Both the position numbers and the translations under genes were made by a program. From an uncultured delta proteobacterium (GTDB lineage Bacteria > Desulfobacterota > Binatia > UBA9968): a stretch of DNA of 31,381 nucleotides. Position 1 is the stretch's first letter. Every line of letters starts with the position of its first letter. The notes beneath the pieces are model-generated. The model was not told the origin of the DNA and did no database searches. It saw only the letters and a program-made list of their open reading frames with translations. Shown here in pieces: positions 234 through 18,962 of this stretch. Location of the stretch: positions 1 through 31,381 of the forward strand of contig CAWJZV010000036.1 in NCBI GenBank assembly GCA_963847445.1. Reading direction: 5' to 3'.

Positions 234-1929
234 CTAGGCCTTGTTCCACGAATGGGTATTCCACGAGCTCGAATTCTGCCCGCCGCTCTCCTGGCGCGGC
301 GTGATGCCGGTTAAGCCCTTTTTCACTACGAGAACTTCCGGTGTGAAAAACAGCGGCAGATGCGGCAGCGCCGCGCTAAACATCTTGCAGAATTCGATTT
401 GCAGTTTTTCCGATTGTTCAGGCGTGATGATCGAGTTGATCTCATCGAGGATTGCGTCCTTCTTGGGATCATTCCAGCCGGAAACATTCTCCGGCGCGAA
501 TTTGTTTTCCGCCGTCGGGATGTTCTTGGAGTGAAACCGTTCGGGCCACTCCTCCACGGTGACGTTATGGGAACCGATATACGCGCCCGGCCAGCGGTTG
601 CGATTGTCCGCCGAGTTGAGCAGGCGGTTGGGCATATTTTTGATGTTGGTGCGCACACCGATCTTTTTCCAATAGTCGGCGATGATCGCCTGCGCCTGTT
701 CATGGTCGCGACGCTCGGCGGTGACACGGAATTCGAACTCCATTTTCTCGCCCTTGCCGTTGACGACTACGCCGTCGGCCCCCGGCTTCCAACCTGCTTC
801 CGCCAAGAGTTGTTTTGCCGCGCTCGAGATCGAACTTGTAAATCGTCGACGCCGCCAGGGCTTTGTTGTTGACCTTACGGGCGCGCGATAGCGGTAAATG
901 CGATACCACTTTCTCGCCTTTGAAGAGGTTTTGCACCATCGCATCGCGGTCGATGGCATGCAGCAAAGCGCGCCGCACTCTCACGTCGCTGAACCAAGGA
1001 TTGTCCCGGCTGAGGCTGAGCCAACTCCACGACGCCGGGCTGATCAACACCTTGCCTTTGCCCTGCTTTTCCCATTGATCGCGCAAGATCATCGCGCCGT
1101 CGAACGAGATCGTACTGCGCATACAGATATCGACCTCGCCGGCCATGACCGCGGCGAGATTGGTATTGGTATCTTCAACGGTCTTGTAGGTGATGCGGTC
1201 GATCTTAGGCCGGCCGAGAGCGAAATCGTTGAACGCTTCCAACTCCACGCGGCTGCCTTGATCCCACTCGACGACTTTGAACGCGCCGGCGCCGACAAAG
1301 TTTTTGTTCCAATACGGCAAATTGGCAAAGGCCTTCATGTCGCCGCCTTGAAAAGCGTCAAGTAGAAGGTGCCGCGGAAAAGCGCGCACATGGGTGTATT
1401 GAATCGCGTAGGCTTCATTGTAGAGATCGTTCCAGTGAATCACGATGGTGCGATCGTCGGGGGTCTCGATCTTGGTAATCATCTCCGGCACTAGGCGATC
1501 CGGCATGGGAAATTCCGGATGCTTGGCGATCTGCCAGCCAAACTCAAAGTCTTTCGAAGTATAAGGCTTGCCGTCGTGCCATTTGAGGTTGGGCCGCAGC
1601 TTGTAGACCGTGATCATGGTCTTCTTTTGCACATCGATCTTCCAGGTGCCCTTCTTGACCGACGGCAATTCCTCAGCGAGCACCGGCACGCGCTCGAAGG
1701 TCGTCGGGTTTTGTCCGACTAGGCCGGCGTCGACCATCGACACATGCTCGGTTTCGCGCCGGTTATGATAACCGAGGCTGGTCACCTGCCGCTCGCCGTG
1801 CATGACGATGCGCTTGCGCCCCGGTTGAGCCGCGAATAGCTGCGGCACCCACAGCGCGCCCGCTGCCGTGGCGCCGGTCAGTTTGACGAATTGTCTCCGG
1901 GTCAACGATGATTTTCTGGCATTTTTCAT
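234..1929 (-). CDS. ABC transporter peptide-binding protein (SBP family 5), Tat signal; one frameshift near 820
   Basis: ATG at 1929 with GGAGGA RBS; TRRQFVK twin-Arg signal; LRPNLKWHDG, FSDVRVRRALLHAIDR and AKQLLAEAGW motifs; ORFs 700-1965 and 234-959 join at FDLER/AKQLL. Confidence 0.9.
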
Positions 1930-13251: not shown

Positions 13252-14277
13252 CTATTTATACAGCCCGTCTATGTACCCGGACTTGTCCAGCTCCTCGATG
13301 AAACGCGTGTCGACAAAATCCTTCGCGTTGGCGGTCTTGGCGGCGGGGAGGCGCTTGCCGGCTTCTTCGAAGATCGGTTTGAAGCCGTCGAGGTTCGGAT
13401 AAGGCTTGGGTTGGATGAAGCTGCGCAGCAGTTGATAGGAATCTTCCAAGTCGCGCTCGTCTTTGATCTGCATATGTTTGCCGATGGCGCGCTTGGCGGC
13501 GGCGGGATTGTTGCGCATAAAATGGATGCCGTCGATCATCGATTTAATCACTCGCCGAACAATGTCGGGATTTCGTGCGATGAATTTCTGGGTGGTGTTC
13601 AAACCCGTCTGCTGCAAGACGATGTCCATTTCCTGCATGTTCAACAGGACACGCATCCCCATGGCCGCCAATTTTTTGTCATAGGGCGGCTGCATGATCG
13701 CGGCGTCGATGGATTTGCCCACGGCAAGCGAATTAACCAGCACGGGCACATCGCCGCTTTGCACCAGGATCGACATCCTTCTCCGCGTCGAATCCAAGGC
13801 CGCGACAACAACAAGTCGCGTCGTCCAGTCGCTCACCGTGCCGAAACGCGTGACTCCGACCCGCTTGCCCCTGAGATCGGCAACCGAGCGAATCTCCGGC
13901 TTGACCACCAGACGATAGATCGGCTTATGCAGAAAGCTCAGCAGCATGACCACGTCGGCGCCCTGCAATCGCGCCGGCGTGAGCAAGCTGGCCGAGTAGA
14001 CACACATCTGAATCTCGCCGGCGATCAACGCCGTCTGTCCCAAGGTGGTTTGCAAGTAGAGAACTTCGGCGTCGATGCCGTTCTTTTCGAACAGCCGGCC
14101 CTCCTGAGTCACCCACAACATGGAGTTGGTGATCGTCGCGCCGGAGTAGCCGATGCGCAGCTTGTCGGCGGCAAAGCTCGGTTGCGCGGTCAAAGAAAGA
14201 ATAACAACGGCGACGGCGATCAAGAGAAATACGGCGAATGAACATCGGAGTCGTACCCTCACCCTTCCCTCTCCCAT
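13252..14277 (-). CDS. ABC substrate-binding protein, SsuA/NMT1 family; start uncertain (possibly ATG 14245)
   Basis: Close paralog of 8506-9486 (ADKLRIGYSG...LDKSGYIDGLY); locally garbled by compensating indels near 13770-13815. Confidence 0.88.
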   Translation of the reverse strand: MGEGRVRVRLRCSFAVFLLIAVAVVILSLTAQPSFAADKLRIGYSGATITNSMLWVTQEGRLFEKNGIDAEVLYLQTTLGQTALIAGEIQMCVYSASLLTPARLQGADVVMLLSFLHKPIYRLVVKPEIRSVADLRGKRVGVTRFGTVSDWTTRLVVVAALDSTRRRMSILVQSGDVPVLVNSLAVGKSIDAAIMQPPYDKKLAAMGMRVLLNMQEMDIVLQQTGLNTTQKFIARNPDIVRRVIKSMIDGIHFMRNNPAAAKRAIGKHMQIKDERDLEDSYQLLRSFIQPKPYPNLDGFKPIFEEAGKRLPAAKTANAKDFVDTRFIEELDKSGYIDGLYK

Positions 14278-14293
14278 CGGAATGGGCGAGGGT
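14255..14293. repeat. CCCTC-type palindromic repeat
   Basis: ACCCTCACCCTTCCCTCTCCCATCGGAATGGGCGAGGGT. Confidence 0.65.
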
Positions 14294-14311
14294 AAGAGAG
14301 TGACATCGGTC

Positions 14312-14353
14312 GGAAACGTTTTGAACGATTTGAACGGCTTGAACGTTTTGAAC
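14312..14353. repeat. 9-nt tandem repeat (TTGAACGNN)
   Basis: ggaaacgttttgaacgatttgaacggcttgaacgttttgaac. Confidence 0.85.
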
Positions 14354-14355
14354 TC

Positions 14356-15409
14356 TTAATCTTTTATTAATTTAGTCACCGACCGCGTCGAGCCGCCTTC
14401 CGGCGTGCTCTGGCCCCAGACGTGAATGTACTGCGACTGCGAGCCGTCGCCGCCGGCGACGATGACGAGAATATCCTCGGGCTTGTCGGTGACCGGGATG
14501 ATGCTGTCGCGAGTCAGCTTAAGATCGGAGCGGCGCTTGACCCGCTGGAAGAAGGTTTCGTCGGGCAAGTCTTTCATCCGGTACGCGGCGCGCTCCCAGA
14601 CGAACTTCTGCACGTCCTTTTTGCTGAAGCCGTCGTCGGCGATGATCTTGGCATGCTCCGGGCAGATGACCATGATCGCCTCAGGGCCGGAAGGTCCTTC
14701 CATTTTCTGGGCGAAGTTGATCAGCACCCCTTCGGCTTTCGAGCTGTCCAGGTCGGAGGCGCGGATCGACGCATCGGCGCTGATCGCCGTCACCGTGCTT
14801 TGCTCGGCTTTGAAACCGCGCTCGACATGGAGCGGCTCCCAGGGACTCGCTTCCTCGTTTTCGCCGACGCAAATGGAATATTTTCCCGGGCCAGCCCAGC
14901 GTCGCCTTGCAGGTCGTGCCTGGATAAGAACCGCCGATGTTGCGCTTCACCAACTGCACGAAGCGGCCGATGGTGGCGTTGGCGCGCCAGCCTTCGCCAA
15001 GTGCGTTGGAGCCGCCGTTGACGTTCAATTGCTGGCGCACCGGGCCGTTGATGATGATCATCACCGCCGGCCCGCCGGTGGTGGCTTGCAGGGCGTAGAG
15101 ATTCAACTTGGGATCGGTGATCGCTTCCACCGCGGCGATCAGTGTCGGCATGTACTCGGGCTTGCAGCCGGCCATGACGCCGTTGATGGCGATTTTTTCC
15201 ACCGTCGCTTGCGCCCAGCGCGGCGGTACCGCGCCGATCACTTCATCCGCTTTGCGCTTGGTCGCCGCCAACATTTGCGCGACGCGCGCTTCGGTGGGCG
15301 GGATGATCGGCAGGCCATCGGACCAGCCTTTTTCTTCGAAGAAGGCCTGCGCCTCCCAAATGTCATCCGGTATTTCGACTCGTTCCGCTGCCAATGCTGC
15401 CGTTGCCAT
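14356..15409 (-). CDS. Conserved protein with GWSDGLPIIPPT motif (UGSC-associated partner); frameshift near 14880
   Basis: DGLPIIPPT, EKIAINGVMAGC, RANATIGR; after the shift ENEEASPWEPLHVERGF...ICPEHA...ILVIVAGG. Confidence 0.8.
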
Positions 15410-15447
15410 AAATTCCACCCTTCAAAATTAGACTCGCAATCTCTATT

Positions 15448-15532
15448 CGTCATTCCCGCGAAAGCGGGAATCCAGGTTTGTTGCCGGCGAACCGAAGGCA
15501 AAGATGGATACCGGCCTGCGCCGGTATGACGG
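15448..15532. repeat. CGTC-tagged REP doublet
   Basis: CGTCATTCCCGCGAAAGCGGGAATCCAG...TGGATACCGGCCTGCGCCGGTATGACGG. Confidence 0.88.
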
Positions 15533-15619
15533 ACTAGGAATGGAAACAAAAAAAAGTCTCGGATTCCGAGTCCGCTGTTCAATACGAAACTCGAAACCCG
15601 AAACTTGAAATTATCTCTG

Positions 15620-16171
15620 CTAGGCGACCTTCGCCCGCGCCGCCTCGGGCGCAAGCAGAATATTCACCAGCTGATCAAATGCCGCGTCGGCCTTCTTGTT
15701 CACTTCTTCGATCTTGACCGTGCCGATGGGATGCTGCACCACCAACACCGGATGATCCGGCGCTCCGAAAGCTTCCTTCTCGGACTTTGCCAATGCGGTG
15801 AAGGCGTGGGTGATCAACGTGATCGCGAACCGTCCGCGCTTTTGGATCTCGAGTGAGTCGTGGACACTCCACGACGTGCAGGAGCCTCAATCACCGAGGC
15901 CGCAAATGACGAAGTCGGCTTGCGACGCGAGTTCGTCGAGATACTGTTTGGGCGCTCCTTGCTGGGCGGTCAGCTTGCGCCGCGTGACCATGCCGGCGAC
16001 GCCGTATCTTTCTTTCAACAATTCCGCGAAGCGCTCCGCCAATTTGTCGGCGTTGGGTTTGCTGTTATCGAGCAGCCCCACCACTTTGCCGCGCAGATCG
16101 GTGAACTGGGCTATACCCGCGATTTTCGCCGCCGAGCTCTGCGCTTTCCCTTCCGGGCTGAGAACAATCAT
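15620..16171 (-). CDS. UGSC-family selenoprotein (183 aa, Sec at TGA 15887-15889)
   Basis: AGGAGGA RBS; ORFs 15887-16171 and 15620-15817 share a frame and are separated only by TGA; readthrough gives GLGD-U-GSCTSWSVHD; hairpin follows the TGA. Confidence 0.9.
15857..15875 (-). promoter_or_regulatory. Putative bacterial SECIS hairpin
   Basis: mRNA GUCGUGGA-GUG-UCCACGAC, starting 11 nt after the UGA. Confidence 0.75.
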
Positions 16172-16266
16172 TTAATGTCCTCCTCCTGTTAAATTTGCCA
16201 CCACTGTAATCGACTGCTACTCACTGTGTCAAAACTAGTTGCGACTATACGCTCTCTTATTCATCT

Positions 16267-16380
16267 CGTCATTCCGGCGTGGGCCGGAATCCAGGTGACG
16301 GACGGCGTCCGTCATACCGTTGGAGAACGGTATCCAGGTGGATGATGGGGTCTGGATGCCGGCCTGCGCCGGCATGACGG
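16267..16380. repeat. Composite CGTC-tagged REP-like element
   Basis: Two tandem forward units plus one inverted unit ending CATGACGG. Confidence 0.88.
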
Positions 16381-16408
16381 ATCACGACTCATCGCTTCCA
16401 ACAAAAGA

Positions 16409-17497
16409 CTACAGCGCATAGAACGCCTTCGGATTGTCGTAAAGAATTTTCTGCACCGCCGACTGCGGGATATCGCCCTTGTCGGCGCGGGCTTGCAACT
16501 CCTTGCGGAACTCCAGCTCCATCGACGGATCGCGATGGGTATAGTCCGAACCGACCATCAAATTATCCTCGCCGACGGTTTTAATGATAAGCGGCAGGTC
16601 CTCGTCCACCTGGCAGGTGACCCAGATCCGGTTGTCCTTGAAGACATTGCTCGGAATATCGATCAGCGGCACGCCGAGAACACCGACCGACTCGCGCCCC
16701 TGCTGCTTGATCGCCTGCCGTTTCAAATCGTACGCCACGAACGGCGTCCACATGGAGCCCGCTTCGATGCAGCCGATGCGCAGCTTGGGAAACTTCATCG
16801 GGATCTTGTGCAAGACCAATCCGAGCACACCGTTGATCGCCGCCCCCTTGGTGCGCATAAACTGGCCATGGGAGAACTCCCGCGCCGGTGAAAAATCCGG
16901 AATTCCGGAGCCGGTATGAATGCAGATCGGCAGATCAAGCTTTTCCGCCGCCGCATAGAGAGGTTCGAAATAGGGATCGGCGGGATACTTCCCCGCTTCG
17001 CGGTCACCCTTTTTTATGACGCCGCAGGCGCCATGCTCTTTCGCCCAGGTCAGCTCTTCCAGCACCGTATCGATTTTCTGCACCGGCGGCATGCAGATCC
17101 AGCGCAAGCGGCCGCCCGAATGACTGCAACGCTCGCCCAACCAGCGATTGTAGCTTTTCCGCGTCGCCGTGCTCGCCTCGGGATTCTCCGACGCTTCCAT
17201 TAGAAACAAAGTCGGATAAATCACCTGAACATCGGTTCCGAGCTCATCCATATGTTTGAGCCGGGCATCGATGTCAAGCAGCTCGCGGGTCTCAACAGTG
17301 GTACCGGAATCCTTGTCACTGCGGATGAAGCGCACTTGACGCTTGCCCTCGATCACCCAATAACGGGCCGGCGGCAGTTTCGGATCGGGGTTGGATGGAT
17401 ACGCGGTCGTCGGCTTGTAGGCCAGATCGCCGCCGCTCATGAACTCCCAAGTGGCATCGGTTTCGTCGATATGTGTGTCAGCGTCAATTATGCGCAC
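16409..17497 (-). CDS. Amidohydrolase_2 family protein
   Basis: IIDADTH, ICIHTG, CIEAG, GSDYTHRD, DNPKAFY. Confidence 0.92.
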   Translation of the reverse strand: MRIIDADTHIDETDATWEFMSGGDLAYKPTTAYPSNPDPKLPPARYWVIEGKRQVRFIRSDKDSGTTVETRELLDIDARLKHMDELGTDVQVIYPTLFLMEASENPEASTATRKSYNRWLGERCSHSGGRLRWICMPPVQKIDTVLEELTWAKEHGACGVIKKGDREAGKYPADPYFEPLYAAAEKLDLPICIHTGSGIPDFSPAREFSHGQFMRTKGAAINGVLGLVLHKIPMKFPKLRIGCIEAGSMWTPFVAYDLKRQAIKQQGRESVGVLGVPLIDIPSNVFKDNRIWVTCQVDEDLPLIIKTVGEDNLMVGSDYTHRDPSMELEFRKELQARADKGDIPQSAVQKILYDNPKAFYAL

Positions 17498-17788: not shown

Positions 17789-18871
17789 CTACAACCCATA
17801 AAATGCTTTAGGATTGTCGTAGAGGATCTTCTCCACCGCCGTCTTGGGAATCTCGCCCCGGTCGGCTCGTTGTTGCAATAGCGTGCGAAACTCCAACTCC
17901 ATCGACGGGTCGCGGTGTGTATAGTCGGAGCCGACGATCAGATTGTCCTCGCCGACATATTGCAGGATGTACGGCAGATCCTCATCGACCTGGCAGGTGA
18001 CGTAGATGCGGTTTTCCTGGTAGACGTTGCTCTTGATTATCGTCGGCGGTCCGCCCAGGACGCTCACCCGCCCGGTGCGCGACTTCATCCGCCGGCGCAG
18101 GTCATAATCGACAAAGTTGACCCAGGAAGCGCCCGCTTCGATGCAACCGAAGCGCAACTTGGGGAACTGCGCCGGAATGTTGTTGACGATCAAGGTCTCG
18201 ATACCGTTGACCGCCGCGGCTTTAGTGCGCCAGAACTGCGCTAAAGAAAAATCCCGCGCCGGCGAAAAATCGGGGATTCCCGAACCGGTGTGAATGCAGA
18301 TCGGCAGGTCGAGCTTTTCCGCCTCCGCGTAAAGCGGCAGAAAGTATGGATCGGTGATCCATTTGTCGGCCTCGCGGTCGCCCTTCTTCAAGACGCCGCA
18401 CGCGCCATGCTCCTTGGCGAAGCGCAGCTCTTTGATGGTCTCGTCCATATTGTGCAGCGGCGGCAGGCACACCCAGCGCAACCGGCCCGCCGATCGTCCG
18501 CAGCGATCGGCAAGCCAGCGGTTGTAGCTACGGCGCAGCGCGCTGGACACTTCGGGCTTCTCGGTCGCCTCCATGAGAAAAACCGTCGGGTAGATGACTT
18601 GAATATCGGTGCCGAGCTGGTCCATGTGTTTGAGCCGGACTTGGACATCCAGCAGTTCCCGCGATTCCACCACCGTCCCCGATTCTTCGTCGCCGCGGAT
18701 AAAACGCAGCTGGCGCCGCCCATCGATCAGCCAATAACGGGTCGGGACTTTGGTCGGATCGGGATTGGCGGGGTACTGCGTCGTCGGTTTGAACCTTAGA
18801 TCGTCGCCCGTCATGAACTCCCAAGTGTCCTCGGTTTCATCGATATGCGTATCGGCGTCTATGATTCCCAT
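17789..18871 (-). CDS. Amidohydrolase_2 family protein, tandem paralog of 16409-17497
   Basis: GGAGG RBS before ATG 18871; IIDADTH, ICIHTG, GSDYTHRD. Confidence 0.92.
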   Translation of the reverse strand: MGIIDADTHIDETEDTWEFMTGDDLRFKPTTQYPANPDPTKVPTRYWLIDGRRQLRFIRGDEESGTVVESRELLDVQVRLKHMDQLGTDIQVIYPTVFLMEATEKPEVSSALRRSYNRWLADRCGRSAGRLRWVCLPPLHNMDETIKELRFAKEHGACGVLKKGDREADKWITDPYFLPLYAEAEKLDLPICIHTGSGIPDFSPARDFSLAQFWRTKAAAVNGIETLIVNNIPAQFPKLRFGCIEAGASWVNFVDYDLRRRMKSRTGRVSVLGGPPTIIKSNVYQENRIYVTCQVDEDLPYILQYVGEDNLIVGSDYTHRDPSMELEFRTLLQQRADRGEIPKTAVEKILYDNPKAFYGL

Positions 18872-18962
18872 GATGATTCCCTCCGATTCGTAAATAGCCT
18901 CGCCCCGATCCCAACGTTTCTCACTAGAGAGACTGTGGAGCAATGCGCGGGAGTCCGAGTTC

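Follow-up and report, generated by a model that had tools for sequence, protein, structure and literature searches.

The UGSC family of selenoproteins has been without an assigned function since its first mentions in about 2007, and the available parts of reviews from 2022 and 2026 list its function as unknown (PMC9312934, PMC13188914). It ranks with the most abundant selenoprotein families of ocean and freshwater metagenomes: the accessible part of one survey counts 255 genes in the GOS ocean and freshwater metagenomes and describes it as the most used family in the non-marine samples (PMC2398784). The window analysed here, a stretch of 31,381 nucleotides from an uncultured delta proteobacterium, carries a UGSC gene followed on the same strand by a gene for a larger protein. 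A sequence-only reading of this locus had proposed a two-subunit selenium-dependent redox enzyme acting on imported small molecules. The present analysis opens the question of function to direct test, with UGSC as the small part of what would be a fixed two-part enzyme. The module in the window belongs to a widespread kind of two-gene unit whose members almost always occur together, and the two proteins probably form one redox enzyme. The window itself carries one more ordinary copy, in which the partner gene probably contains a sequencing error.

The UGSC gene lies at 15620–16171 on the minus strand and encodes 183 amino acids; its position and strand, and those of the partner gene (also minus), had been read correctly. 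The protein belongs to the family by both Pfam PF24696 (1e-44, 153.1 bits, cut-off 25) and NCBIfam NF041046 (4.6e-39, 133.8 bits, cut-off 125). An in-frame TGA at 15887–15889 (minus strand) is read as selenocysteine 95 within the motif G-D-U-G-S-C-T-S-W, giving the U(or C)-G-S-C signature as G-D-U95-G-S-C98. C98 is invariant across 42 UGSC sequences, and 62 of the 66 UGSC genes adjoining partner homologues have one in-frame TGA at the same place.

A hairpin just downstream of the UGA is what defines a bacterial SECIS element. In the window such a SECIS-like hairpin (15857–15875, minus strand) starts 11 nt after the UGA, with an 8-bp stem GUCGUGGA/UCCACGAC and a GUG loop. Over 65 distinct UGSC genes, 88.7% of cells at these positions pair, versus 79.6% in shuffles; none of 500 shuffles matched this level, and positions slid along the genes pair at 16.7–51.5%. 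One pair is GC in 34 sequences, CG in 31 and never broken. The case for the hairpin stands on this covariation and not on stability: in free energy, the 42 nt that follow the UGA are unremarkable beside other windows of the same genes (16% of 67 genes fall in the most stable tenth), and the 68-nt stretch examined in the window has a z-score of 0.35. The genome encodes tRNA-SeC(tca) and a selA-selB-selD cluster, with selA and selD over cut-off, selB present as four frame-split pieces and selA likewise divided across frames in the same assembly. The conserved, covarying hairpin together with this machinery makes selenocysteine decoding of the UGSC TGA credible. An Rfam scan of 14000–16500 returned nothing relevant. 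Upstream of the gene, at 16203–16232 (minus strand), a consensus scan picked out a promoter-like site, TTGACA-18-TACAGT, which matches at 10 of 12 positions; a match of this kind is not evidence of function.

The partner gene occupies 14356–15409 on the minus strand. The motifs that had been read in it (DGLPIIPPT, VMAGC, RANATIGR and CPEH) are all found. The prediction of a gene for roughly 350 residues holds as to its existence, but in the window it is not one open frame: frame 0 ends in ..TLGWPGK, and the remainder, from YSICVGENEE.. to the stop and including CPEH, continues in the +1 frame. Together the two frames span positions 1–177 and 173–352 of the family model, and the N-terminal 178-residue query is 96% identical to the homologue P0001. 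Full-length similarity and the motifs DGLPxxPPT, VMAGCxPEY, RANAxIGR and KYxxCxxENEE place the protein in its family. This is the family called 'Unknown_1', as the motif AVNGVMAGC(R/K)PEYMP is common to it and to the 'Unknown_1' alignment in Figure S1A of PMC2398784.

The +1 shift falls at 14881–14890 (minus strand), in the homopolymer tract TTTTCCCGGG. The corresponding site in intact 350-residue homologues reads TLGWPGKYSICVGENEE, and the extra base is therefore placed in this tract. It might be a real frameshift of the strain, leaving the partner a pseudogene and this copy of the module dead. The base is present in the window as given; other window genes also look split, such as SBP_bac_5 at 234–959 and 700–1965; and the genome could make up for the loss with a second, fused copy and with a partner copy that stands unlinked. 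We nevertheless regard a pseudogene as improbable. None of the five public contigs spanning the site has the base, the omitted letter falling at 14885 (three contigs) or 14888 (two); these contigs come from three runs (X1–X3) of one study, which possibly include the window's own source, while a contig from run X4 stops at 14889, short of bridging the site. The insertion lies in a homopolymer, there are no further defects, and the two frames jointly match intact homologues closely. Moreover, selA and selB, which the many TGA-containing genes of this genome need, are equally frame-split, so indel errors fit better than decay. With every bridging contig free of the extra base, it is probably an assembly error, and the module is therefore probably intact in the organism.

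Between the two genes lies a 210-nt spacer (15410–15619, minus strand). It contains the core of a high-copy palindromic repeat (15453–15470, minus strand), of which a 23-mer has 109 approximate copies in the genome, and a terminator-like hairpin with a T-run (15558–15570, minus strand). Contig depth over 15439–15505 is about 1600–1860 in runs X1–X3 and 390 in X4, versus about 5–20 in the two genes. In RNA runs, at most 0.09 of the sampled words were found.

The statement in the sequence-only reading that the two families are often adjacent or fused holds. Partner loci were compared across many phyla: at 66 of the 79, UGSC is encoded on the partner's strand, and at 62 of these the genes are at most 300 nt apart or share one open frame, with both gene orders occurring. 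Within 151 genomes of the phylum, the families are present in exactly the same 18, and a same-strand partner match lies within 700 nt of 50 of the 55 UGSC matches. Paralogues grow in step, one genome having 14 UGSC and 13 partner matches. This pairing is far above chance. Fusion points the same way: 44 of 66 partner representatives of at least 385 residues carry a UGSC domain, 40 at the N-terminus and 4 at the C-terminus. A thioredoxin-fold AhpC-TSA/Redoxin domain occurs on two of the 66, and a ferredoxin-thioredoxin reductase catalytic chain on two, one of the latter being UGSC + partner + FeThRed_B. The window's own genome also encodes a 554-residue fused Sec form, besides an unlinked UGSC gene (contig C15) and an unlinked partner gene (contig C26). 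No UGSC gene lies within 4 kb at 13 of the 79 loci, three of which have a fusion of the partner with a thioredoxin fold. Among 13 full-length non-Sec fusions, four have neither Sec nor Cys at the U position and no C98 but keep the partner residues C82, C180, R149 and E183; the partner can thus apparently dispense with UGSC redox chemistry. One of these four, P0136, has W in place of U, perhaps through a TGA translated as Trp, as happens in other gene calls from these sources.

The wider neighbourhood is less constant. An NMT1-type SBP gene (13252–14277, minus strand) does follow the partner gene, and two Amidohydro_2 genes (16409–17497 and 17789–18943, both minus) precede the UGSC gene, as had been read. 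The proposed action on imported small molecules finds no support in the recurrence of these neighbours. A phmmer comparison of seven window neighbours over the 79 partner loci found the NMT1 SBP at 5, Amidohydro_2 at 3 and cupin at 0. Clustering of 442 flanking ORFs yielded no conserved third gene, the largest cluster (TctC receptors) reaching 8 of 79 loci, and a Pfam scan of 77 of 155 immediate neighbours, covering loci L004–L042 only, was heterogeneous. In the window's genome, each of the three UGSC or partner loci has NMT1 and Amidohydro_2 genes beside it; as that genome has about 297 NMT1-like and about 121 Amidohydro_2-like loci, this is not counted as evidence. Conservation of the pair does not extend to its SBP and amidohydrolase neighbours.

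The partner family is large, with 5621 clusters at E ≤ 1e-3. Its near-invariant residues are D31-G-L-P-x-x-P-P-T39, C82, R142, N144, R149, C180 and E183; among 150 representatives, C82 is kept in 146, R149 and E183 in 149 each, and C180 in 134. The conserved cysteines are thus C82 (VMAGC) and C180 (KYxxC). A Cys/His pocket built on CPEH finds no support: that cysteine is not conserved, and the family consensus there is VLxPEHA.

Pfam and NCBIfam gave nothing consistent for the two window fragments or across the 74 aligned members. A PDB sequence search returned no match for P0001 and two noise matches (E 0.28 and 0.34) for the family profile. P0001, used as a stand-in for the partner, is modelled with a pLDDT of 94.6 and a pTM of 0.93, and Foldseek of this model against the PDB gave no match at E ≤ 1e-3. 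VIA-align over 48,161 chains found none at Z ≥ 5, the best being CetZ (Z 4.2) and 7xky_A (Z 4.1, 181 aligned, rmsd 5.3). The latter, a class I fumarate hydratase, was also the best Foldseek candidate, yet it was rejected as a relative at E 1.1e-3 and TM 0.22/0.25. Fe-S hydro-lyases and Toblerone-fold amidohydrolases recurred as weak rows and were too weak for use. In the ESM Atlas the partner met only unnamed clusters with automatic 'thioredoxin' names, and skipping UGSC left no named cluster. The partner therefore has no convincing solved fold in these searches and no Pfam or NCBIfam family.

UGSC, by its AlphaFold model (pLDDT 90.8), is built of five beta-alpha units, and U95 sits at the N-terminal end of helix 96–111. 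Its strongest structural matches resemble flavodoxin or CheY (VIA Z up to 11.0, Foldseek TM up to 0.51); the 50 matches listed are flavodoxin-, CheY- or Rossmann-like, with thioredoxin absent among them. UGSC thus models as flavodoxin-like and probably not thioredoxin-like. Its selenium module has relatives elsewhere. A profile of 42 UGSC sequences aligned by hhalign with six full-length GRDB-family proteins, which are uncharacterised paralogues of the phylum rather than the studied clostridial enzymes, at a probability of 94.9% (E 4.4e-8, 95 columns), with the Sec residues and the HP motifs in register, the match being limited to GRDB-like residues 329–427. Single GRDB-family sequences gave E 1e-3 and 2e-4, negative controls 0.1–0.7%. 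UGSC also shows the GRDB Sec-module pattern, strand-T-U-G-x-C/x-T-helix-..-HP. On these profile comparisons the Sec module of UGSC is homologous to that of the GrdB family.

Complex prediction was run on stand-ins for the window proteins, P0001 for the partner and P0273, a natural Cys form 78% identical, for UGSC. An ipSAE of 0.85 was obtained in all three runs, against 0.00 for the best of three controls, with 137–141 contacts, at least 97% contact agreement and a partner pLDDT of 86–87. Of solved complexes, 116 of 157 attain this mark, as do 2 of 215 mismatched pairs; the rates are approximate here because our own alignments were used. The predicted interface comprises UGSC residues 1–11, 95–97, 99–101 and 104 and partner residues 37–40, 75–76, 79, 105–111, 157–160 and 165–169. 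As to a contact between U-x-x-C and the partner's conserved Cys/His pocket, which had been posed as a check, U95 is in the predicted interface, and M79 is among the named partner residues, but C82 and C180 are not. The sequence-only reading had staked itself on co-occurrence across genomes and on an interface; the former was found and the latter predicted. Its central proposal, a two-subunit selenium-dependent redox enzyme, is supported by adjacency and fusion, co-occurrence, the UGSC domains and a predicted complex that passes its controls.

Gene linkage, fusions, co-occurrence, the predicted interface and fold, and a Sec module homologous to that of the GrdB family together make it reasonably probable that UGSC and its partner are the two subunits of one Sec/Cys redox heterodimer, which thioredoxin-type donors would supply with electrons. 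The partner would be the large subunit and would carry the substrate pocket, lined by the near-invariant C82, R149, E183, C180, R142 and T111. UGSC would be the small, flavodoxin-like subunit, its N-terminal strand (with the invariant P6) packing on the P-P-T motif of the partner, and docking would bring the U95-G-S-C98 loop to the entrance of that pocket. The selenolate might then reduce a substrate held by the partner, or an intermediate or disulfide linked to Cys82; C98 would resolve the product, giving a selenenylsulfide, which thioredoxin-type donors would re-reduce. Which way the electrons flow, and what C82 and C180 do, is inferred. Several observations count against the heterodimer: the terminator-like hairpin between the two genes, the 13 of 79 loci without a nearby UGSC gene, the unlinked UGSC and partner copies, and the redox-dead fusions. 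The absence of C82 and C180 from the named interface residues, the use of stand-ins in folding the complex, the uncharacterised state of the GRDB paralogues compared and the partner's lack of similarity to GrdB, GrdE or PrdA weigh on the same side.

Some of these would sit well with a different division of labour, in which UGSC would do no more than shuttle electrons, as a dedicated thioredoxin-like carrier, and the partner would be a self-sufficient Cys enzyme, with C82 catalytic and C180 resolving, as in methionine sulfoxide or arsenate reductases; UGSC would re-reduce the partner disulfide and never meet the substrate. The two near-invariant partner cysteines favour such a scheme, as do thioredoxin-fold or FTR-B modules on the partner, sometimes without a nearby UGSC, the four fusions with a redox-dead UGSC domain and intact partner cysteines, and the U-x-x-C at a helix N-terminus, as in CxxC oxidoreductases. 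We judge it rather unlikely, though worth keeping in view. A general shuttle needs no copy per paralogue, whereas UGSC and partner copies multiply one for one; the large predicted interface, with strand addition, looks more like that of a permanent subunit; in the GrdB family, to which the Sec module is homologous, Sec acts on substrate; and the predicted fold is flavodoxin-like and probably not thioredoxin-like. The pair might even be no reductase at all, serving as a carrier or chaperone for reactive sulfur, selenium or soft-metal species, or with UGSC as a regulatory or structural subunit. The analysis turned up no substrate, no cofactor site and, at the loci examined, no conserved metabolic neighbour; some fusions keep redox-dead UGSC domains, and in the fold searches the partner has no recognisable enzyme fold. 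Repeated fusion with thioredoxin-fold and FTR-B modules, however, points to electron supply, the costly Sec codon is retained in 62 of the 66 UGSC genes beside partner homologues, and invariant R149 and E183 beside C82 resemble a catalytic pocket, which makes a non-reductase very unlikely.

The heterodimer could be carried one step further, to a doubtful but specific proposal of a new selenoenzyme class: a GrdB-type Sec module may have moved onto a large subunit of undescribed fold and there, in Stickland-like fashion, reductively cleave a carbon-heteroatom bond of some small organic acid or amine, with C82 as covalent anchor or pyruvoyl precursor, in aerobic soil, freshwater, marine and sponge-associated bacteria whose paralogues would each be tuned to a different substrate. 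The large subunit brings in thousands of sequence clusters that domain libraries leave unnamed and for which no solved structural relative was found. Natural Cys forms (UGSC P0273; the UGSC-partner fusions P0221 and P0170) would permit expression without selenocysteine machinery. Cultured bacteria that carry the system, according to the 2008 paper (PMC2398784) or to the present analysis, include Hyphomonas neptunium, Sphingomonas wittichii and Robertmurraya sp.

Known systems share some of these features. The UGSC/Unknown_1 fusion, together with a Cys that is conserved, is already noted in the available part of an earlier study (Zhang & Gladyshev, PLoS Genet 2008, PMC2398784); relative to that part, which describes the fusion only, the present analysis adds the near-obligate neighbourhood of the separate genes, the size of the partner family and the flavodoxin-like model of UGSC. 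Thioredoxin, peroxiredoxin-like and DsbA-like selenoproteins have, like UGSC, a U/C-x-x-C at a helix N-terminus and likely exchange thiol or selenol with disulfide, and genuine thioredoxin-fold domains are sometimes fused to the partner; unlike these oxidoreductases, UGSC has a predicted topology of five beta-alpha units.

A further likeness is to GrdB/GrdE, protein B of glycine/sarcosine/betaine reductase, and to PrdB/PrdA of D-proline reductase, each a two-gene unit of a large subunit and a U-x-x-C Sec subunit. The catalytic cycle of the GrdB/PrdB enzymes, as given in the accessible part of a review, closes in a selenenylsulfide that a dithiol donor reduces. The C-terminal 100 residues of UGSC resemble the Sec-bearing C-terminal module of the GRDB family (..ILTSTUGT(C/G)TRCGA..EIE+xGIPV..HP..), so that its selenium module appears kin to that of glycine and proline reductase. 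Unlike GrdB, UGSC is without the GRDB domain of about 345 residues N-terminal of Sec, and Pfam GRDB (PF07355) gave no match to it at E ≤ 0.1. Nor is the partner related in sequence to these proteins: its profile has a probability of 0.7% against the N-terminal part of GrdB and 0.2% against five GrdE-like proteins of the same genome (GrdE/PrdA, PF09338), and by sequence it does not belong with the proproteins of that family, whose self-cleavage at a Cys yields a pyruvoyl group. No GrdA, GrdC or GrdD genes are linked to the pair, and any pyruvoyl-forming self-cleavage of the partner, at G81-C82, is hypothetical. The hosts differ as well: Grd and Prd systems belong to amino-acid-fermenting clostridia, whereas UGSC and its partner are carried by soil, aquatic and sponge-associated bacteria.

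The UGSC selenoprotein family and its partner, a family of proteins of about 350 residues, show about the tightest linkage possible for a pair of gene families. With a 74-sequence partner alignment (A1) as query, a pattern scan gave 79 partner loci, spanning Binatia, Methylomirabilota, Poribacteria, Chloroflexota, several proteobacterial classes, Acidobacteriota, Entotheonella and one Bacillota isolate; UGSC was sought there with a purpose-built profile in ORFs from all six frames, TGA not counting as a stop. A same-strand UGSC gene accompanies the partner at 66 loci: within 300 nt at 48 (31 downstream of the partner, 17 upstream), farther apart at 4, and in one open frame at 14, which is the most that could be fusions, since a genuine TGA stop would have been passed over as well. 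An in-frame TGA is present in 62 of these 66 genes; at the other 13 loci, no UGSC was found within 4 kb. In a sample of 151 genomes of the phylum, the genomes matched by PF24696 and those matched by the partner profile are the identical 18. Same-strand partner matches lie within 700 nt of 50 of the 55 UGSC matches; two are farther away and three UGSC matches have none, two of the three having open frames of ~590–600 aa, in a genome for which the partner search scored only 13/18 candidates.

The fusion survey covered the best 150 partner-family representatives, 66 of them at least 385 aa long. A UGSC domain is found on 44 of the 66 (40 N-terminal, 4 C-terminal); 28 of the N-terminal fusions begin just past the Sec position, meaning a gene call cut at TGA, and the four C-terminal ones are cut at Sec. 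AhpC-TSA/Redoxin occurs on 2/66 and the ferredoxin-thioredoxin reductase catalytic chain on 2/66, one of which combines UGSC, partner and FeThRed_B; 19/66 carry no recognisable extra domain. The sequence-only reading had put forward that the two families are often adjacent or fused, and loci, phylum genomes and long representatives all bear this out.

Paralogues occur within this genome. A fused 554-aa UGSC–partner selenoprotein on contig C24 (34485–36059; locus L003, 343–2007, minus strand; ..VGVGHUSTCAP..) has Ala at the otherwise near-invariant C82 (VMAGARPEY). An unlinked UGSC gene (C15:55975–56484) and an unlinked partner gene (C26:62979–64034) lie away from the ends of their long contigs, and NMT1 substrate-binding protein (SBP) and Amidohydro_2 genes adjoin both; in the close relative at locus L004, the counterparts of these two genes, a second UGSC and a second partner, stand in tandem with the first pair. 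A short partner form of 315–316 aa (338 aa in L029) occurs at L006, L008, L011, L013, L014 and L029, five of them Poribacteria MAGs. It matches model positions 1–283 only, has no UGSC within 4 kb, and its neighbours include CBS-domain and PhyH+HEAT proteins.

The window pair is an ordinary member of this known but uncharacterised association. The UGSC gene (15620–16171, minus strand; 183 aa, G-D-U95-G-S-C98, TGA read as Sec) scores 153.1 bits against Pfam PF24696 and 133.8 bits against NCBIfam NF041046 (cut-off 125). After a 210-nt spacer follows the partner gene on the same strand, with its ATG at 15409 and its stop at 14356. The spacer contains a terminator-like hairpin (15558–15570) and a stretch (15439–15572) of a high-copy intergenic palindromic repeat, which also lies at 14300–14366 and 16243–16300. 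The repeat core, TTCCSGS-N-SCSGGAA, lies at 15453, 16272, 21123 and 31351. Repeat contigs reach a depth of about 1600–1860 in sequencing runs X1–X3 and 390 in X4, against about 5–20 in genes, and a 23-mer has 109 matches (≤3 mismatches) in the 7.19-Mb genome; the element looks like a REP-type repeat.

The partner motifs quoted in the sequence-only reading are all present, but they are split between two frames rather than held in a single open one. Frame 0 makes sense up to ..TLGWPGK, and the +1 frame continues from YSICVGENEE.. through to the end. In intact 350-aa homologues, of which the closest shares 96% identity over the N-terminal 178-aa query, this site reads TLGWPGKYSICVGENEE, and the window's TTTTCCCGGG (14881–14890) therefore has one base too many. 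Logan contigs from four public runs (X1–X4; three samples, one study), placed on 14300–16300, bear on whether the frameshift is real and the gene a strain-private pseudogene. All contigs bridging 14881–14890 omit one letter, 14885 in three (X1, X2, X3) and 14888 in two others that diverge more (X1, X2), and either omission restores LGWPGKYS; the X4 contig, ending at 14889, is uninformative. These runs are mutually non-independent and may include the window's own source. Elsewhere in the assembly, the selA-selB-selD cluster (C14:191492–195726) has selA broken into two pieces in different frames and selB into four, yet the genome holds many TGA-containing genes that require both; an SBP_bac_5 gene is likewise split (window 234–959 / 700–1965). 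Such splits suggest many indel errors, and, since the bridging contigs lack the base and selA and selB are split yet needed, the partner frameshift is very probably a homopolymer indel error.

Selenocysteine decoding is further indicated by an RNA hairpin, conserved with compensation. Its 8-bp stem, GUCGUGGA-GUG-UCCACGAC (15857–15875), starts 11 nt past the UGA; its stability is nothing out of the ordinary. The share of cells that pair across 65 distinct UGSC genes is 88.7%, versus 79.6% in shuffles (0/500 reach the observed value) and 16.7–51.5% in slid registers. One pair, broken in none, is G-C in 34 and C-G in 31 of the sequences, a swap that links a synonymous site to a codon change between Trp and Cys. 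The genome has a tRNA-SeC (aragorn) besides the C14 cluster, whose selD contains an in-frame TGA. Public UGSC gene calls often give Trp for the Sec codon (..GDWGSCTSW..; P0270–P0275, P0296–P0298, P0313), apparently from an alternative genetic code at gene calling; protein databases therefore mix true Cys forms with mis-called Sec forms.

Structure prediction supports binding of UGSC to the partner. The inputs were a partner alignment headed by the intact homologue P0001 and a UGSC search-hit alignment headed by P0273, a natural Cys form 78% identical to the window UGSC. The ipSAE was 0.85 in 3/3 runs (best of the three controls, 0.00), with 137–141 contacts, at least 97% contact agreement and a partner pLDDT of 86–87. 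In the tool's calibration, 116/157 solved complexes and 2/215 mismatched pairs reach the mark, rates that apply only roughly because our own alignments were used; no like complex has been solved, so the result is unlikely to reproduce a known structure. In the predicted interface, the UGSC N-terminal strand 1–11 (with invariant P6) lies on partner 8–15 and P37-P-T39, and UGSC 95–97, 99–101 and 104 face partner 75–76, 79, 105–111, 157–160 and 165–169. U95 of the U-x-x-C motif is in the predicted interface; the partner residues named do not include the conserved C82 and C180.

The partner belongs to a large family, with 5621 clusters (50% identity) at E ≤ 1e-3 and 1389 at E ≤ 1e-30, and its proteins are called 'hypothetical' in source databases; of the 74 members compared with Pfam and NCBIfam, not one fits a model. 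Although the P0001 model is confident (pLDDT 94.6, pTM 0.93), no solved structure resembles it convincingly (best Foldseek E 1.1e-3, TM 0.22–0.25; VIA, no Z ≥ 5 among 48,161 chains). Among 150 representatives, C82 is conserved in 146, R149 and E183 in 149 each and C180 in 134, along with D31-G-L-P-x-x-P-P-T39, T111, R142 and N144; the Cys of CPEH is not conserved. Six proteins of 709–741 aa (P0123, P0125, P0148, P0183, P0229, P0244) match the partner in 2–4 stretches at both ends (e.g. 13–324, 383–701), which suggests two tandem partner domains; they match no Pfam family, and all six have Val for C180 in the aligned copy. The UGSC model (pLDDT 90.8) has five beta-alpha units, with U95 starting helix 96–111. 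Structurally it is matched by generic folds of the flavodoxin, CheY or Rossmann type (VIA Z up to 11.0, 146 chains with Z ≥ 8), with no thioredoxins among the matches listed.

No third conserved gene was found at the 79 partner loci. The 77 immediate neighbours scanned, out of 155 (loci L004–L042), have mixed Pfam content, the largest flanking-ORF cluster (TctC receptors) reaches only 8/79 loci, and the window's neighbours seldom recur (NMT1 SBP 5/79, Amidohydro_2 3/79, cupin 0/79). NMT1 and Amidohydro_2 genes flank all three UGSC/partner loci of this genome, which has about 297 of the former and about 121 of the latter. The earlier suggestion of action on imported small molecules finds no support in genes so rare at partner loci and so abundant across the genome.

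A heterodimeric Sec/Cys redox enzyme is the reading we lean towards. The partner would bind the substrate, and UGSC would supply the U-x-x-C pair where the pocket opens, to be recycled by thioredoxin-type modules. It is rather doubtful, though conceivable, that the partner is instead a self-sufficient two-cysteine enzyme with UGSC as a private reductant only. That alternative is kept alive by two observations against Sec as the obligatory catalytic nucleophile: 4/13 full-length non-Sec fusions are without both redox residues and retain C82, C180, R149 and E183, although one has W at the U position and may be a TGA read as Trp; and among the 13 loci with no nearby UGSC, three have a fused thioredoxin fold and six carry the short form.

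A 'UGSC/Unknown_1' fusion was printed in 2008, and supplement 1 of that paper aligns the partner motif VMAGC(R/K)PEYMP (PMC2398784). In the parts of the UGSC selenoprotein literature open to full-text search, no function, gene-neighbourhood survey, fold or GrdB link was found; relative to those parts, the linkage strength, the predicted heterodimer, the predicted non-thioredoxin fold and the GrdB-module homology are new. The predicted flavodoxin-, CheY- or Rossmann-like fold runs contrary to the thioredoxin likeness suggested in PMC2398784.

Glycine/proline-reductase-like selenoprotein genes are also numerous in this Binatia-class genome: at least six GRDB-family genes (PF07355) have a Gly_reductase-family neighbour (GrdE/PrdA-like, PF09338) (C24:72830–75270, C32:4647–7130, C42:220744–223227, C17:213655–216057, C4:63161–68295, C25:2206–4590). 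The three GRDB genes read past the Pfam match have an in-frame TGA in ..ILT(S/A)T-U-G... Aligning 42 UGSC with six full-length GRDB-like proteins (hhalign) gave Prob 94.9% and E 4.4e-8 over 95 columns, UGSC 76–177 on GRDB-like 329–427, with the Sec residues of the two families aligned and their HP motifs likewise; controls were flat (partner/GRDB-like 0.7%, partner/GrdE-like 0.2%, UGSC/GrdE-like 0.1%). The partner is thus unrelated in sequence to the other parts of the selenoprotein B family. At the profile level, UGSC has its Sec module in common with that family, as compared here through uncharacterised GRDB paralogues and not the studied clostridial enzymes: the GRDB-family tail ..AVILTST-U-G-T-(C/G)-T-R-C-G-A..EIE+xGIPV resembles UGSC ..VIxGLGD-U-G-S-C-T-S-W-S..ELEKRGxP.
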